This document shows, piece after piece, positions 10,158 to 49,735 of a stretch of 64,000 nucleotides of DNA (positions are counted from its first letter, which is position 1; each line of letters starts with the position of its first letter). The translations under genes were made by a program, and so were the position numbers. The notes under the pieces were generated by a model, which saw nothing but the letters and a program-made list of their open reading frames with translations, was not told the origin of the DNA and searched no databases. This DNA is from Acidimicrobiia bacterium (GTDB lineage Bacteria > Actinomycetota > Acidimicrobiia > Spongiisociales > ZC4RG35): positions 64,879-128,878 of the forward strand of contig DATKCZ010000005.1 in assembly GCA_035512955.1 (NCBI GenBank). Direction: 5' to 3'.

Positions 10158-10235
10158 ATGAGCCGCGACACTGCCGCCACTCGGGACAACCTGTCCCTCG
10201 GCGCGTTCTACTTCCGCGGCTATTTCGGCGCTTAG
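10158..10235 (+). CDS. Candidate 25-aa Phe/Tyr-rich leader peptide upstream of the pheA-DAHPS fusion gene
   Basis: It translates to MSRDTAATRDNLSLGAFYFRGYFGA. Five aromatic codons (F Y F . . Y F) fall in the last 10 codons. The stop codon sits in the loop of hairpin CGGCGC-tta-GCGCCG (10226..10240). Confidence 0.4.
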   Translation: MSRDTAATRDNLSLGAFYFRGYFGA

Positions 10236-10298
10236 CGCCGTACCACCCCCACCCCCGCTTTTCCTGTCCTGTCCTAACCGCTTCGACGCGTCCCCCCA

Positions 10299-12411: not shown

Positions 12412-12927
12412 TCAGACGAAGAGGCTGACGTCGGCGTCGGCTGCGTAGTCCAGGAACGCGGCGGCGCCGGCGATGTCGGCTCCCGGTATCAGGTCCTGTT
12501 GGGACACGCCCATCACCCCCATGGTCGTCGCGCAGGCGAAGAACCTCACATCTAGCTCCTGGCACATGTCGATGAACTCGGGGACGGTCGGCATGCGCGC
12601 ATCGCTCATCCATTTCCGCATCACCTTGGTCGCCGCCGCGGTTGCACCGGGGACTGCGCCGAGGATATTGGGCAGCTGGATCGGCCCCGCCGGGTTGGCC
12701 AGCGAGGAGACCTTCAGCCTGTCGAATCGCTCGGCATGAAGGATGTCCAGGCCATAGAACGTGAAGTAGATCCCCGCCTCCCAGCCCAGGCTGACCGCGG
12801 TCGAGGCCAGGATCAGTGGCGGGTAGGCCTGGTCGAGAGTCCCCTTGGAGGCGACCACCGCCAACCTCTTCCGGCGCTCAGCCGGTTCCTCGGCGTGGGT
12901 CTCGGCGTGGATCGGCACGGCGGTCAT
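12412..12927 (-). CDS. DsrE/DsrF-like sulfur-relay family protein
   Basis: 171 aa. DsrE-like pattern (VVASKGTLDQAYPPLILA...YFTFYGL...FFACATTM). There is a 4-bp overlap with tusA upstream. Confidence 0.6.
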   Translation of the reverse strand: MTAVPIHAETHAEEPAERRKRLAVVASKGTLDQAYPPLILASTAVSLGWEAGIYFTFYGLDILHAERFDRLKVSSLANPAGPIQLPNILGAVPGATAAATKVMRKWMSDARMPTVPEFIDMCQELDVRFFACATTMGVMGVSQQDLIPGADIAGAAAFLDYAADADVSLFV

Positions 12928-13181
12928 CTTCGGGTTCCCTTCTCTATGACGAACAGCTGGCGCCCTCCCTCATCGTCCGCGGAGACCAGGGTGTCGCCAC
13001 GCTGGCGCGTCATCGCCGGTATGTCCTGCAAGGCGCCCGGATCGGTGGTGATCAGACGCAGCCGGGCACCGCTCTCCAACTTGTCGAGGACCAGGGCAGC
13101 CTTGTACACCGGGAGCGGGCACAACAGGCCCTCGCAATCGAGCTCCACGCTCTCGATTTCAGTGGTGTTGTCGGTACTCAT
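12924..13181 (-). CDS. tusA: TusA/SirA-like sulfurtransferase
   Basis: 85 aa. Conserved CPLP active-site motif in LDCEGLLCPLPVYKA. Confidence 0.8.
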   Translation of the reverse strand: MSTDNTTEIESVELDCEGLLCPLPVYKAALVLDKLESGARLRLITTDPGALQDIPAMTRQRGDTLVSADDEGGRQLFVIEKGTRR

Positions 13182-14170
13182 GGGTTTAGTCTCCCTTCCT
13201 CTCCGAGGATGTCCTCGAAGTAGCTCGTGTACTTGACGCCGGAGTCGGCGGAGATGGCCACGACCACGTCGCCGGGCTCGAGCGATAGGGTGCTGACGGC
13301 GTGGACCACGGCACCGGTGGACGGGCCTACCATCAGCGCCTCCTCCCGCCAGATCTCCTTGGTCACCCGGTAGGCGTCGTCGTCGGAGACCACGACCTGG
13401 TGGTCGACCGCCTTCGGGTCGAAGATCGCCGGGATGCTGGCCTCGGCGAAGCTCTTCATCCCGGGGAGGCGATGGCCCGGCTCGGGCTCGACCCCGACTA
13501 TCCGAATCGACGGGTCCTTCTCCTTGAGGTAGCGGCCGGCGCCGACCAATGTGCCGGTCGTGCCCAGAGCGGCGACGAGCCAGCGGACCCGTCCTCCGGT
13601 TTGTCGCCAGACCTCAGGTCCGGTGGTGGCGTAGTGAGCGGTCACGTTGTCCTCGTTCTCGTACTGGCGGGTGGCGGCAAATCTCGTGCCTCCCTCGGAG
13701 GCGGCCAGGGCTCTCGCCAGCGCGATCGCCCCGTCTTTGGGGTTGTCCACCGGGCACAGGTCGTCCGGCGTCTCCCACACCTCGGCGCCCAACATGCGCA
13801 GGATCACTTTCTTCTCCTCGGGCACACCGTCGGGGATCGTGGTGGTCAGGCGGGTGCGGGACAGGGCGGCCAGCGCGGCGAGCGCGATGGCGGTGTTGCC
13901 GCTCGACGCCTCGACCAGCTCGCGTCCTTTCAGCTCTCCGCGGCGGGCGAGGCCATCGATGAGGTAGGCGGCGGTCCGGTCCTTCACCGACCCGAAGGGA
14001 TTGAGCCACTCCAGCTTGAGGAACAGCTCGTAGTCGCGGTCGGGCAAGACGCGGTTGGCCCTCACCAGGGGCGAGGGGTTCTCGACGTCGGGGAGCATGT
14101 CGCCGACGTGGGCGAACCTCCGCAGCGAGAGGTCGGTTCCGAGTCTCTCCTGGGTCGTGGGTGTTGTCAT
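13178..14170 (-). CDS. PLP-dependent cysteine synthase family protein (CysK/CysM-like)
   Basis: 330 aa. PLP lysine motif NPFGSVKDRTA, an SSGNTAIALA block, and a GTTGT loop. Confidence 0.85.
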   Translation of the reverse strand: MTTPTTQERLGTDLSLRRFAHVGDMLPDVENPSPLVRANRVLPDRDYELFLKLEWLNPFGSVKDRTAAYLIDGLARRGELKGRELVEASSGNTAIALAALAALSRTRLTTTIPDGVPEEKKVILRMLGAEVWETPDDLCPVDNPKDGAIALARALAASEGGTRFAATRQYENEDNVTAHYATTGPEVWRQTGGRVRWLVAALGTTGTLVGAGRYLKEKDPSIRIVGVEPEPGHRLPGMKSFAEASIPAIFDPKAVDHQVVVSDDDAYRVTKEIWREEALMVGPSTGAVVHAVSTLSLEPGDVVVAISADSGVKYTSYFEDILGEEGRLNP

Positions 14171-14190
14171 GGGCTCTCCAGAAATGCAAG

Positions 14191-14223
14191 AAGCCCGCCT
14201 CGGCGTATCGCCGGTGCGGGCTT
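14191..14223 (-). terminator. Attenuator-type terminator hairpin in the cysteine synthase leader
   Basis: On the minus strand: AAGCCCGC-ac-CGGCG-aua-CGCCG-ag-GCGGGCUU, followed by CUUGCAUUUCU and then the RBS GGAGAG and ATG. The 5' arm can alternatively pair with GCGGGCU at the 3' end of the leader ORF. Confidence 0.5.
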
Positions 14224-14253
14224 TCGATGTCGGTCTACTGGTGGGTCAGACGA

Positions 14254-14325
14254 TCACAGCCCGCGCGGCGCGGCGGCGCATGCACAGGTGCAGGCGCAGA
14301 CCAGGCGGGTGCCGTGATTCGTCAT
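14254..14325 (-). CDS. Candidate 23-aa polycysteine leader peptide
   Basis: On the minus strand, ATG at 14325 encodes MTNHGTRLVCACTCACAAAPRGL followed by a stop. Four Cys codons fall within 7 codons. It lies 83 nt upstream of the cysteine synthase start. Confidence 0.55.
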   Translation of the reverse strand: MTNHGTRLVCACTCACAAAPRGL

Positions 14326-14333
14326 CGGTCGCG

Positions 14334-14361
14334 ATGGTAGGGGGTTCGCGCGTTTGGTCAA
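14334..14361 (-). promoter_or_regulatory. Candidate promoter TTGACC-16-TACCAT for the Cys leader / cysteine synthase operon
   Basis: On the minus strand: TTGACC (14361..14356), a 16-nt spacer, TACCAT (14339..14334), then 8 nt to the leader ATG. The transcript would be leaderless or nearly so. Confidence 0.4.
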
Positions 14362-15935
14362 GAGGAGTCTGAGGGACGTCGTGGTGATGAGATGGCCAGC
14401 CAGATGAGCAGGCCGAGGAAGACGACCACTGTGCCGCCGGCGATCCAGCGGGCGTCTAGCGAGCTTCCCGGCTCCGCACCAGGTGCAGGCCCGGTACCCT
14501 CTGCCACCAGGGGTGGGACCGTGGGCTCGGTGGCGGGAACGGTGGTGCTGGTCGGTGTCTCAATGGCCGCAGCGTCTTCGAGGACAAGCAGCGGCCCGGC
14601 GTTGGCCGTCGGCAGTGTGACCAGGGTCTCTACCGAGCCCGAGGTGAGATCGGCCCTCAAGATCGAGCCTGCTTCGACACCGAAGATGAGTTGACCGGCG
14701 GCGACGTTGTGTATGGAGTTCCACGGACCTAGCTCGACTACTTCACCGCTGAAGGTGTCCACTACCAGGCCAATCGGAATCTCGGAAACCTCCCAGTCGT
14801 AGCCGGTGACCAGCACCCGCTCGTCGTCGAGCCAGGTCGGGGAGTAGGCCTCCAGAGCGAGCTCGACGCTGAATGATCGCACCCCGGCCTCGTCCACGAT
14901 CGACAGGGTGGAGGCCGAGGCCGTCGACTCTTGGTCGAATCGCGTCTCTATCAGGGCAGCGCGTCGCTCCTTGGGATGGGCTGCCGCGGACAACGACCAC
15001 AACTCCCCGGGTGGGATGGCGGTGATTGGTGTTCCTTCCCCTGAGGCGACGTCGATCCAGGTGATGTCACCCTCCGGTCCCGATTGGGAGAGGACGAAGT
15101 CGGTGCCGACCCATCCTCCGGTACCGGGCAGGGTGAGGATCGGCTCGGTTGCTCCTACCTCGACGAGTTGGGATCCGGTATCGGAGGCCAAGAGGAGCCA
15201 GATCGAGGACGCATCCTCGGTTCGACAAGAGACGTCGGAGCCCCATTGGCTCTCGACCCCGAGGTCGTGGTTGGCGACCGGCTCGAAGGTGGCCATATCC
15301 CAGACAACCAACTCGGAGCTGGTCACCTGCACCGCGAGGTCTCCGCCGAGACACGCTTCGAGGAGCTGGGTGCCCTCGAACTCGTCGGCGTCATCCCTTG
15401 GGAAGAAATCGGCGACGTGGCCACCTTCGGCGTCGAGCACAGTCAGACGTGTGGAGTTCCAGCCGTTTCCGGCCACGATTCGGGGTATGCCGGTCTTGCT
15501 CACCACTAGGCCCGTCTTCAGGGTCAGCGCCACATCGGCATCGATCTGCGAGCACAGCCCGCCGCGAAGGACTCCGCCTTCGAGGTATATGGCGGCGCCG
15601 GTTCGTTGGTCGACATCGAAGAACTCGAATCCACATCCGGCGCCATCGCTCGCCGAGTGGATCTCGATCACGTCCCCGGCATCACCCTTGATCCACTCCT
15701 CGACCTCGAACACATAGACACTCTCCATATCGAAAGGGCCGTCCCCGCCGTCACGCTTGTCGATGAGGGTGCCGACGAACACAGCCTCCGACTGGTCGAC
15801 CCACTCGTGGAGGTCGGAGGGCGTGGCACAAGAGCAACCCCGGGCGGTGAGGGGGAGGATCGGGGTGAGGGCGGCGGCGAGCAGGGCTGAGGCGACCAGG
15901 AGCCGGCCGAGATTGGCGGTCTTGTCCATCATCAT
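14358..15935 (-). CDS. Secreted, C-terminally membrane-anchored protein with N-terminal TIMP/NTR-like domain and beta-propeller-like middle region
   Basis: The start was chosen at MMMDKTANLGRLLVASALLAAALTPILPLTARG (signal peptide); the ORF is open back to 16022. The predicted mature N-terminus is CSC.... There is a P/T-rich linker and a C-terminal TM helix WIAGGTVVVFLGLLIWLAI. Confidence 0.6.
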   Translation of the reverse strand: MMMDKTANLGRLLVASALLAAALTPILPLTARGCSCATPSDLHEWVDQSEAVFVGTLIDKRDGGDGPFDMESVYVFEVEEWIKGDAGDVIEIHSASDGAGCGFEFFDVDQRTGAAIYLEGGVLRGGLCSQIDADVALTLKTGLVVSKTGIPRIVAGNGWNSTRLTVLDAEGGHVADFFPRDDADEFEGTQLLEACLGGDLAVQVTSSELVVWDMATFEPVANHDLGVESQWGSDVSCRTEDASSIWLLLASDTGSQLVEVGATEPILTLPGTGGWVGTDFVLSQSGPEGDITWIDVASGEGTPITAIPPGELWSLSAAAHPKERRAALIETRFDQESTASASTLSIVDEAGVRSFSVELALEAYSPTWLDDERVLVTGYDWEVSEIPIGLVVDTFSGEVVELGPWNSIHNVAAGQLIFGVEAGSILRADLTSGSVETLVTLPTANAGPLLVLEDAAAIETPTSTTVPATEPTVPPLVAEGTGPAPGAEPGSSLDARWIAGGTVVVFLGLLIWLAISSPRRPSDSS

Positions 15936-15979
15936 GATTGGACGCCGATTCTCGTCTCTCGGTTCCGGCGATCCATCCA

Positions 15980-16009
15980 TCGACAAACGAACGTTCGTTT
16001 GTTTAGAAT
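15980..16009 (+). promoter_or_regulatory. paaA promoter with embedded 20-bp perfect palindromic operator (probable TetR/PaaR site)
   Basis: TCGACA (15980..15985), an 18-nt spacer, and TAGAAT (16004..16009). The palindrome ACAAACGAACGTTCGTTTGT (15983..16002) fills the spacer. The paaA ATG at 16016 is 7 nt after the -10 element, so the transcript is probably leaderless. Confidence 0.6.
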
Positions 16010-16015
16010 GGAGGC

Positions 16016-16942
16016 ATGACACCCGAGGAGAAGTTTCAGGCGATCGTCGACGACGAGTCGAAGATCGAGCCCACCGACTGGATGCCGGAGGGCTATCGCA
16101 AGACCCTGGTCCGCCAGATCGCCCAACACGCTCACTCTGAGATCATCGGGATGCAGCCCGAGGGAAACTGGATCACCAGGGCCCCGACCTTGCGCCGCAA
16201 GGCGATCCTGATGGCCAAGGTGCAGGACGAGGCAGGTCATGGGCTCTACCTCTACTCGGCTGCAGAGACACTCGGCGTGAGGCGCGACGACCTCCAGGAG
16301 CTGCTCCACCAGGGCAAGCACAAGTACTCGTCGATCTTCAACTACCCCACCCTCTCCTGGGCGGACATGGGAACGATCGGCTGGCTGGTCGACGGGGCCG
16401 CCATCACCAACCAGGTGATGCTCACCCGTTGCTCCTACGGTCCCTACGCCCGCGCCATGGTCCGCATCTGCAAAGAGGAGTCCTTCCACCAGCGACAGGG
16501 ATACGAGTTGCTCATCAGGCTGTGCAACGGCACACCCGAGCAGAAGGCCATGGCCCAGGACGCCCTCGACCGGTGGTGGTGGCCCTCGCTGATGATGTTC
16601 GGCCCCAACGACTCGGACTCGACGCACTCGGAGCAGTCGATGGAGTGGAAGATCAAGCGAGTCTCCAACGACGACCTCCGCCAGCAGTTCGTGGACATGA
16701 CCGTCCCTCAGGCCGACTACCTCGGGTTGAGCATCCCGGACCCCGACCTGAGATGGAATCCACAACGTGGTCACTACGACTTCGGTGAGATCGATTGGGA
16801 GGAGTTCTGGAGGGTGGTCAAAGGCCATGGGCCGATGAGCCGGGACCGGATCGAGCACAAGACCAAGGCATGGGACGAGGGAGCGTGGGTACGTGAGGCC
16901 GCCTCGGCGCATGCCGCCAAGAAGACGAGGAGTGCGGCTTGA
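16016..16942 (+). CDS. paaA: 1,2-phenylacetyl-CoA epoxidase subunit A
   Basis: 308 aa. Di-iron ferritin-like motifs ([16 protein letters not shown]) and PaaA-like sequence throughout. Confidence 0.92.
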
Positions 16943-48818: not shown

Positions 48819-49735
48819 GGGCTTGGCACCGGTGACGACGATCCGGGTCGAGCCGGGTCGGAGCTCTTCAGTGCGCCGAACCACACTCCGGTCATCACCA
48901 CGAGCGCGCCGGTGATGCCCCGGCCCGTCAAGGGCTCATCGAGCAGCCAGGCCTCGACCAGCATGGTGACCACGGGGAACAGAACAAAGGTGTACGAGGT
49001 CACCGCCACCGACCAGCGACGCACCACCAGCAGCATCAGCACGAACATCCCCACAGACCCGAGGAGCACCAGATACAGCACCGACAGCACCACCTCGGGC
49101 TGCCGGGGCACCGCCCACCGCTCACCGGCCAGCCCTGACAGCAAGAGCAAGAGCGGCGCCCCCAATGACATGCCCACCGCGTTGGTCATCACCGGGTGGT
49201 TGCCGGAGACACGCTTGCCGAAGATGACGCTCTGGCCGATGGTGAGGGAGGCGGCCAGGACGGCGAGCAGGCCACCGAGGGGCAGGGCCAGCCCATTGGG
49301 GCCGACCGTCATCCAGACGATCCCTCCCAATGCCAGCAGCGCACCAATGACGGTTCGCCTATTGAGACGTTCCAGACCCTGCGCCCATGCCAGGAGAGGG
49401 GCCACCAAGGGGACTATGGCGAGCAACACCGCGGTCATCCCGGCACTGACCCGAACCAGGGCCCAGTACATGAGGGCGTAGGAGAGGGTGACGGTGAACA
49501 GACCGTATAGACCCGTGAGCACCAGTTGTCGCCCCCTCGGCCGTTCGAGACCCAAGACCAGGGCGATCAGCACGAACACGATCGCAGCCAGCGAGAAGCG
49601 CAGCCCGGCACCCCAGAAGGGCGGGAGCTCGCCATTGCTGAACCTGACCGCAACGAAGTTACCGCCCCCGAGGAGGACGGCGCCGGCGAAGGCACCGAGG
49701 GTGAATGCTCCGGGTGGTCGCAGGGGACCGGTCAA
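48785..49735 (-). CDS. EamA/DMT family transporter
   Basis: 316 aa. About 10 TM helices. It is convergent with the third BMC-P gene and overlaps its 3' end by 34 bp. Confidence 0.8.
   Translation of the reverse strand: MTGPLRPPGAFTLGAFAGAVLLGGGNFVAVRFSNGELPPFWGAGLRFSLAAIVFVLIALVLGLERPRGRQLVLTGLYGLFTVTLSYALMYWALVRVSAGMTAVLLAIVPLVAPLLAWAQGLERLNRRTVIGALLALGGIVWMTVGPNGLALPLGGLLAVLAASLTIGQSVIFGKRVSGNHPVMTNAVGMSLGAPLLLLLSGLAGERWAVPRQPEVVLSVLYLVLLGSVGMFVLMLLVVRRWSVAVTSYTFVLFPVVTMLVEAWLLDEPLTGRGITGALVVMTGVWFGALKSSDPARPGSSSPVPSPQMTSRNSPST

Follow-up and report, generated by a model that had tools for sequence, protein, structure and literature searches.

A predicted cysteine-sensing transcription attenuator upstream of cysM-tusA-dsrE2 in Acidimicrobiia

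Introduction

In mycobacteria, the Cys tract of polycysteine small open reading frames (sORFs; Ms5788A and others) pairs with a downstream Shine-Dalgarno sequence (SD). Control is translational and there is no terminator (Canestrari et al. 2020; 10.1101/834739 / PMC8764745). The authors of that study stated that attenuation for cysteine mediated by an upstream ORF (uORF) had not yet been described, and then found the translational mechanism (10.1101/834739). Cys-rich leader peptides had been predicted earlier upstream of actinobacterial cys and cbs operons. These leaders had no conserved terminator hairpin, and dependence on Rho was proposed (Seliverstov et al. 2005; PMC1262725). In Rhodobacterales, the uORFC-8-2 motif upstream of cysS combines a Cys uORF with a terminator that has a U-tract, and was read as ribosome-mediated attenuation (Brewer et al. 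2021; PMC8632094). Our search of the literature returned no description of a Cys attenuator of a cysteine synthase operon, of a terminator-bearing attenuator of any cysteine biosynthetic operon, or of a cysM-tusA-dsrE2 pathway.

Here we analyze a leader found in a 64,000-nt stretch of DNA from an uncultured member of the Acidimicrobiia (the window). The leader lies directly upstream of genes for a CysM-type cysteine synthase, TusA, and a DsrE2-like protein. Based on comparison with its relatives, we think it quite likely that this leader is a ribosome-mediated transcription attenuator of the trp type that senses charged tRNA-Cys and controls cysM-tusA-dsrE2.

Results

The leader and the operon

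We found that a Cys-rich sORF, a promoter-like sequence in front of it, and a strong hairpin behind it lie on the minus strand just before cysM (Table 1). A preliminary description of this DNA had proposed four parts: a promoter, TTGACC-16-TACCAT, 8 nt before an ATG that has no SD; a 23-codon ORF with four Cys codons in seven positions; a strong hairpin before the ribosome binding site of the cysteine synthase gene; and pairing of GCGGGCU at the end of the ORF with AGCCCGC in the 5' arm of the hairpin. All four were found where they had been placed. A consensus scan chose the same promoter, one of only two sites in 4.5 kb (0.4 expected). The 8 nt between TACCAT and the ATG have no SD-like motif. 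The hairpin, AAGCCCGC-AC-CGGCG-AUA-CGCCG-AG-GCGGGCUU (14223..14191), has an energy of -25.4 kcal/mol and is followed by a U-rich tail, and GCGGGCU (14264..14258) is complementary to AGCCCGC (14222..14216).

Table 1. Positions in the window of the predicted leader elements and of the neighboring genes
Feature	Position	Strand	Basis or remark
-35 hexamer, TTGACC	14361..14356	(-)	sequence and consensus scan
-10 hexamer, TACCAT	14339..14334	(-)	16-nt spacer from -35; sequence and consensus scan
Leader sORF, 23 codons + TGA, MTNHGTRLVCACTCACAAAPRGL	14254..14325	(-)	ATG at 14325, TGA 14256..14254
Cys codons 10, 12, 14, 16 (UGC, UGC, UGU, UGC)	14278..14298	(-)	in apical hairpin of 1:2 structure
Region 1, 5' part of sORF (nt 3-26)	14300..14323	(-)	pairs with region 2; MFE fold
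Region 2, 3' end of sORF and stop codon	14249..14274	(-)	core GCGGGCU 14264..14258 (nt 62-68); partner is region 1 or region 3
A/C-rich spacer, region 2 to terminator	14224..14248	(-)	30 nt counted from sORF to hairpin
Region 3, 5' arm of terminator, AAGCCCGCACCGGCG	14209..14223	(-)	fold and alignment
Region 4, 3' arm of terminator, CGCCGAGGCGGGCUU	14191..14205	(-)	CCCGC/GCGGG invariant in 27 sequences
U-rich tail, CUUGCAUUUCU	14180..14190	(-)	reads UUCUUGCAUUU with two stem-closing U
SD GGAGAG (14179..14174) and CysM-type cysteine synthase gene (ATG 14170)	13178..14179	(-)	Pfam PALP 1.9e-63
tusA	12924..13181	(-)	overlaps cysM by 4 bp; Pfam TusA 4.7e-19
dsrE2-like gene	12412..12927	(-)	overlaps tusA by 4 bp; Pfam DrsE_2 6.2e-41, NCBIfam DsrE2 5.7e-43
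Upstream 554-aa gene	14358-16022	(-)	TGA stop inside leader -35 hexamer

The U-tract in the window is interrupted, and is weaker than the UUUUUCU or UUUUU(U)C of its relatives. A strict terminator scan did not flag the window hairpin because of this interruption. In L001-L008, L016, and metagenome loci, the U-tract is immediately followed by a conserved (C/U)AUGCCC, which is missing from the window copy. In some loci it starts a mini-ORF of 2-5 codons (AUG CCC UGA) that overlaps the cysM SD; elsewhere it is in frame with cysM.

Clusters of Cys codons like the one in the leader are rare in the window. At least four Cys within seven codons occur in 2 of 1153 sORFs of 12-45 codons, and the leader sORF is one of the two. 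The other (49125..49036) was discarded: it lies inside long ORFs and is without a promoter. The fold of the whole leader had z = -2.95 relative to shuffled sequences. Given the rarity of the Cys codons, the fold, and the conservation described below, chance is an unlikely source of these features. A search of Rfam with the leader at E <= 10 gave chance matches to sRNAs only, and no matching family. Three other metagenomes, from soil or sediment, yielded contigs that match the window exactly over 14100-14420 except at one position, a plus-strand SNP (14312 C>A) that changes Gly5 to Val at a variable residue of the sORF and is uninformative.

The product of the cysM-like gene matched the NCBIfam cysM model (3.5e-73) below its curated cut-off, and therefore represents a distinct subfamily. 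The closest solved structure is that of enteric CysM (PDB 2jc3, 4.4e-60). Directly after cysM comes tusA, as in all of the Acidimicrobiia and Gemmatimonadota loci, and the position of dsrE2 is likewise conserved. The product of the 554-aa gene upstream of the leader had no match in Pfam or NCBIfam.

We noticed a second apparently leaderless leader ORF elsewhere in the window (10159-10236, plus strand; TTGACG-17-AACAAT, then 7 nt, then ATG). It encodes MSRDTAATRDNLSLGAFYFRGYFGA, is rich in Phe and Tyr, and lies upstream of a chorismate mutase-PDT-ACT-DAHPS fusion gene. It is followed by a C-rich, G-poor tract in place of a U-tract terminator. This ORF suggests that several amino-acid pathways in this organism are controlled by leader peptides.

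Conservation with cysM

We found the complete module in front of cysM in related genomes. The genome set consisted of the Acidimicrobiia-type cysM orthologues that have upstream DNA (L001-L019, L021-L023, and L027; 23 loci), at 63-80% identity. L010 is cut by a contig end, and L020 has no upstream sequence. The module comprises a TTGAC[CGT]-16-TACCAT-like promoter, an ATG or GTG without an SD, an sORF of 19-32 codons with 3-6 Cys, a CCCGC...GCGGG hairpin, and UUUUU. It was present in 23 of 23 Acidimicrobiia genome loci with upstream DNA. A hairpin equivalent to that of the window, with UUUUU, was present in 25 of 26 loci that have the sORF.

We also searched metagenome contigs with a pattern that took no account of genes, GGGTRRTGA..CCCGCA..GCGGGTTTT. 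It returned 70 stretches, of which 18 had a Cys sORF, and a cysM orthologue lay behind all 18. The other 52 had no Cys sORF and were dismissed as chance matches. That is, the sORF module is found in 23 genome and 18 metagenome loci, and the preliminary description's proviso that absence of the sORF from related genomes would count against it does not apply. In one metagenome variant (L136:1345-1476), the loss of 2 nt immediately behind the Cys cluster shifts the frame and moves the end of the sORF 7 nt downstream (GTG ATG TAG); this could be a natural variant or an assembly error.

The spacing between promoter and sORF was nearly constant. In 18 of the 22 leaders from orthologous loci, TTGAC[CGT] lay 16 nt before the -10 hexamer, and TACCAT or a near variant was kept. 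The distance from the -10 hexamer to the start codon was 8 nt in 14 loci, 9 nt in five, 10 nt in two, and 7 nt in one. None of the 22 loci had an SD-like motif before the sORF. Twenty of the 22 loci are within 8±1 nt. This spacing and the lack of an SD, which are typical of leaderless mRNAs, support the reading that the start is leaderless: the mRNA probably begins at the start of the sORF.

No RNA-seq run contained the window; the contigs considered here relate to one relative, L015. Contigs from three ambiguous 'RNA?' runs end 0-3 nt from the start of the sORF (L015:2810-2813), and one contig has ~125 nt upstream of a leader. We draw no conclusion about the transcription start from these ends because a break in the assembly graph between a conserved leader and a divergent promoter would look alike. 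Contigs of two of the 'RNA?' runs (X26 and X28), which come from a relative ~92% identical, have such ends, either those of a transcript or breaks in assembly, and run through the terminator into cysM. One metatranscriptome contig covers only the 5' part of cysM.

The same design, in partly different sequence, was found in other phyla. It is present in two cysM-tusA-dsrE2 operons of Gemmatimonadota (L025 and L026), with a different and longer antiterminator sequence that reaches 14 bp in L026. It is also present upstream of cysM-like genes of Acidobacteriota/Thermoanaerobaculia (L057, L070, L072, and L079), where the peptides read MFG..ACACICR..PCG... A 15-mer across the Cys codons, TGCGCCTGTATCTGT, is identical in the leaders of Acidimicrobiia L001 (leader at 2851-2982) and of Thermoanaerobaculia/Acidobacteriota L057 (2785-2950) and L070. 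The CCCGCACCGG / CCGUGCGGG core recurs across Acidimicrobiia, Gemmatimonadota, and Acidobacteriota, and the motifs CCGTGCGGG and ACCCGCACCGG also recur across phyla. The shared Cys-codon core and motifs hint that the leader is of common descent or was transferred horizontally.

uORFs with runs of Cys codons also precede cysK/M homologues in MAGs of Myxococcota, Phycisphaerales, and Planctomycetaceae (L039:2830-2910, ..RCCCR; L052:2660-2840, ..ACCCCCGCCVCRDC; L069:2675-2760, ..GLGCCCCRTR). These have no obvious U-tract terminator and may have a different output mechanism.

Predicted terminator and antiterminator

We found that the 5' arm of the hairpin (region 3) has two conserved alternative partners, the 3' arm of the hairpin (region 4) and the end of the sORF (region 2). 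Pairing was counted on an alignment of 27 sequences (A2), with partners slid out of register as controls. The terminator (3:4) was 90.9% paired vs 38-44% when slid, and the antiterminator (2:3) was 88.8% paired vs 17-50%. Two subfamilies need a shifted register for 2:3 and for the 1:2 helix described below, so that fewer of their pairs are counted when one consensus is used.

The preliminary description had called for a test of covariation in orthologous leaders and for a comparison of the alternative folds, and we did both. The CCCGC/GCGGG core of the terminator never varies; double changes occur at three flanking pairs. Because this core is invariant, the evidence for covariation of 2:3 comes from a small number of flanking pairs and from tests of duplex energy. 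Column 113 of the alignment has two alternative partners and covaries with each, i.e., with column 67 (UA 19, UG 5, CG 3) and column 142 (AU 19, GC 4, GU 4). Lineage variants also retain the 2:3 pairing, CCGGUUGGGU with ACCCG(C)ACCGG in the L012 group and GCCGCGUGGGU with ACCCGUUGCGGC in L009. In a permutation test that is independent of the alignment, cognate duplexes were more stable than duplexes made across loci (1:2, p = 0.002; 2:3, p = 0.0006; 3:4, p < 0.0002).

To mimic a ribosome at the last clustered Cys codon, we folded nascent transcripts that begin 12 nt beyond this codon and stop where the 5' arm of the terminator ends. In nearly all loci the end of the sORF (CCG-Y-GCGGG-Y) pairs with the arm (R-CCCGC-A-C-CGG), with a mean z of -2.3 relative to dinucleotide shuffles. 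In full-length folds the terminator was always favored at equilibrium. The switch would therefore be kinetic, i.e., co-transcriptional, as in trp.

We considered that control might instead be translational, as in mycobacteria. That is, the cysM SD would be buried in a structure that opens when a ribosome stalls at the Cys codons, and the hairpin would not be a terminator. Ms5788A, the closest experimentally studied Cys-sensing leaderless sORF, works by SD masking (10.1101/834739), and some loci here have an SD that is largely paired across the ensemble (L006, L007, L009, and L022; P unpaired 0.03-0.13). Across loci, however, SD accessibility ranges from 0.03 to 0.76 (mean 0.38), and we saw no conserved partner for the SD, which lies 9-18 nt beyond the hairpin. 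In addition, the U-tract right after the stem is conserved across loci and phyla, and a masking helix would not need one. We consider SD masking improbable.

Helix 1:2 and constraint on the sORF

A third helix, absent from the preliminary description, forms between the 5' part of the sORF (region 1) and the region of its 3' end and stop codon (region 2), with the Cys codons in an apical hairpin. The outer part of this 1:2 helix (codons 3-4, xUCAY, with RUGAY at the stop codon; columns 7-12 with 69-74) was 92.5% paired, with compensatory changes at four of the six pairs. Among the helices, 1:2 is the one with the best covariation. RNAalifold independently predicted the outer 1:2 helix, the apical hairpin, and the terminator. 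Together the predicted helices 1:2, 2:3, and 3:4 complete the four-region layout of a trp-type attenuator.

The sORF is constrained both as a reading frame and as RNA. In the 27 sequences every Cys codon keeps its TG and has C or T as its third base, and indels in the sORF are multiples of 3. Four-fold degenerate sites in region 2, which comprises the last codons of the sORF, are 93-100% conserved among loci whose CysM proteins are only 64-80% identical. The C-terminal AAAP(C/R)G is conserved at these synonymous sites as well, and the tail of the peptide is therefore kept as region 2 and not for its amino acids. These patterns point to selection on RNA rather than on peptide in the last codons of the sORF.

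This constraint also bears on whether the product of the sORF has a function of its own, such as that of a Cys-rich micropeptide that binds metal or sulfur and works with a TusA/DsrE2 relay. The hairpin would then be an ordinary terminator or other structure with no role in cysteine sensing. Length and the CxCxC pattern are indeed conserved in >40 loci. However, residues other than Cys in the N-terminal half vary freely while base pairing is kept, synonymous conservation of the tail indicates selection on the RNA, and a terminator between the gene for a peptide and those for its operon partners makes sense only with regulated read-through. A micropeptide seems to us less likely still than SD masking. 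Least likely, to the point that we give it little weight, is a constitutive element in which the hairpin ends read-through from the 554-aa gene (which ends inside the -35 hexamer without a terminator of its own) and the sORF is a by-product of GC-rich sequence, since the genes upstream of the leader vary by locus while cysM-tusA-dsrE2 is always behind it, so few sORFs in the window are this rich in Cys, promoter spacing and reading frame are conserved, and close relatives that keep the hairpin were not seen to lose the sORF start or the Cys codons (the opposite was observed). The attenuator hairpin may also end transcripts of the 554-aa gene.

Proposed mechanism

We return to transcription attenuation as the preferred reading. 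The sequence elements, their conservation, and the three alternative helices with their covariation come from the analysis above; where transcription starts, that the sORF is translated, that ribosomes stall on it, and that termination occurs in vivo are inferred. Transcription would start ~7-8 nt after TACCAT, placing the 5' end of the mRNA at the AUG or 1 nt before it, and a 70S ribosome would load on this leaderless mRNA without an SD. When cysteine is plentiful, the ribosome would reach the UGA (nt 70-72) and cover region 2. The 3:4 terminator would then form, and transcription would stop before cysM.

When Cys-tRNA is scarce, the ribosome would stall at Cys codons 10-16, where it would occupy or separate region 1 and free region 2. 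With its A site at a Cys codon, a stalled ribosome should cover roughly -15 to +12 nt. Region 2 would be free during a stall because it begins at least 14 nt beyond the last Cys codon, whereas the footprint reaches ~12 nt beyond the A site. Free region 2 would pair with region 3 while region 4 is still to be made, no terminator would form, and RNA polymerase would enter the operon. If no ribosome loads, 1:2 and 3:4 would both form, and transcription would terminate.

The preliminary description had put forward the central step, in which a stall at the Cys codons leaves the end of the sORF free to pair with the 5' arm of the terminator. The relatives bear this out at the level of sequence: in >40 loci the sORF and its Cys codons recur together with the terminator, its U-tract, and a region 2 that is complementary to region 3. 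Masking by a terminating ribosome would be borderline in some relatives, where region 2 is 4-6 codons away from the stop codon.

Discussion

Our results are consistent with a cysteine attenuator in front of cysM-tusA-dsrE2. More tentatively, and as a possibility somewhat short of probable, the leader may belong to a family of Cys-tRNA-sensing attenuators that spans phyla (Acidimicrobiia, Gemmatimonadota, and Acidobacteriota), has no Rfam entry, and marks cysM-tusA-dsrE2 as a cysteine-biosynthetic unit. If so, a TusA/DsrE2 relay would pass sulfur from a persulfide or thiosulfonate to a CysM-type synthase, which would be an uncharacterized route to cysteine. A switch that senses Cys-tRNA would give a regulatory argument that the coupled TusA/DsrE2 carriers serve cysteine synthesis in Acidimicrobiia, which are abundant in soil and sediment. 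It would also bring cysteine into the set of amino acids under textbook terminator/antiterminator attenuation.

In addition, a leaderless mRNA would drive a transcription attenuator, and loading of the 70S ribosome on the nascent 5' end would have to keep pace with RNA polymerase. The alignment of 27 sequences could seed an RNA family for annotating Cys leaders.

The other described Cys leaders each share part of this design. The actinobacterial leaders of Seliverstov et al. encode Cys-rich peptides before genes for cysteine synthesis, as here. They lack a terminator, whereas the leader described here has all of the parts of an attenuator. In the uORFC-8-2 motif the Cys codons are a tandem pair at positions 14-15, the target is the tRNA synthetase gene cysS and not a biosynthetic operon, and the hosts are Alphaproteobacteria. 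In contrast, the leader here has alternating Cys codons at positions 10-16, is upstream of a cysM-like gene, and is unrelated in sequence.

The preliminary description had pointed to mycobacterial Cys-rich sORFs as a precedent. The likeness holds for the sensor. Both have an actinobacterial host, a leaderless sORF (predicted here), clustered Cys codons, and genes for sulfur or cysteine metabolism downstream, and in both a stalled ribosome would be the sensor (as we infer here). It does not extend to the output, which in mycobacteria is sequestration of the SD without a terminator (10.1101/834739). The leader here has a conserved intrinsic terminator and antiterminator, and no conserved masking of the SD. 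In addition, its Cys codons alternate (CxCxCxC) rather than being consecutive as in the mycobacterial sORFs, and the target operon is different.

The classical attenuators are closest in layout. E. coli trpL, Salmonella hisL, and the leu, thr, ilv, and pheA leaders likewise have a short ORF rich in codons for the end product. As predicted for the leader here, they have four RNA regions whose 1:2, 2:3, and 3:4 pairings compete with one another, the first structural gene is preceded by an intrinsic terminator, and the position of the stop codon lets a terminating ribosome mask region 2. All of the sequence features that define a trpL-type attenuator were found here, namely a Cys-rich leader ORF, a predicted intrinsic terminator, an antiterminator, and a 1:2 helix. 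Unlike the classical attenuators, this leader would sense cysteine, its start is apparently leaderless rather than led by an SD, and its host is an uncultured member of the Acidimicrobiia rather than of the Proteobacteria.
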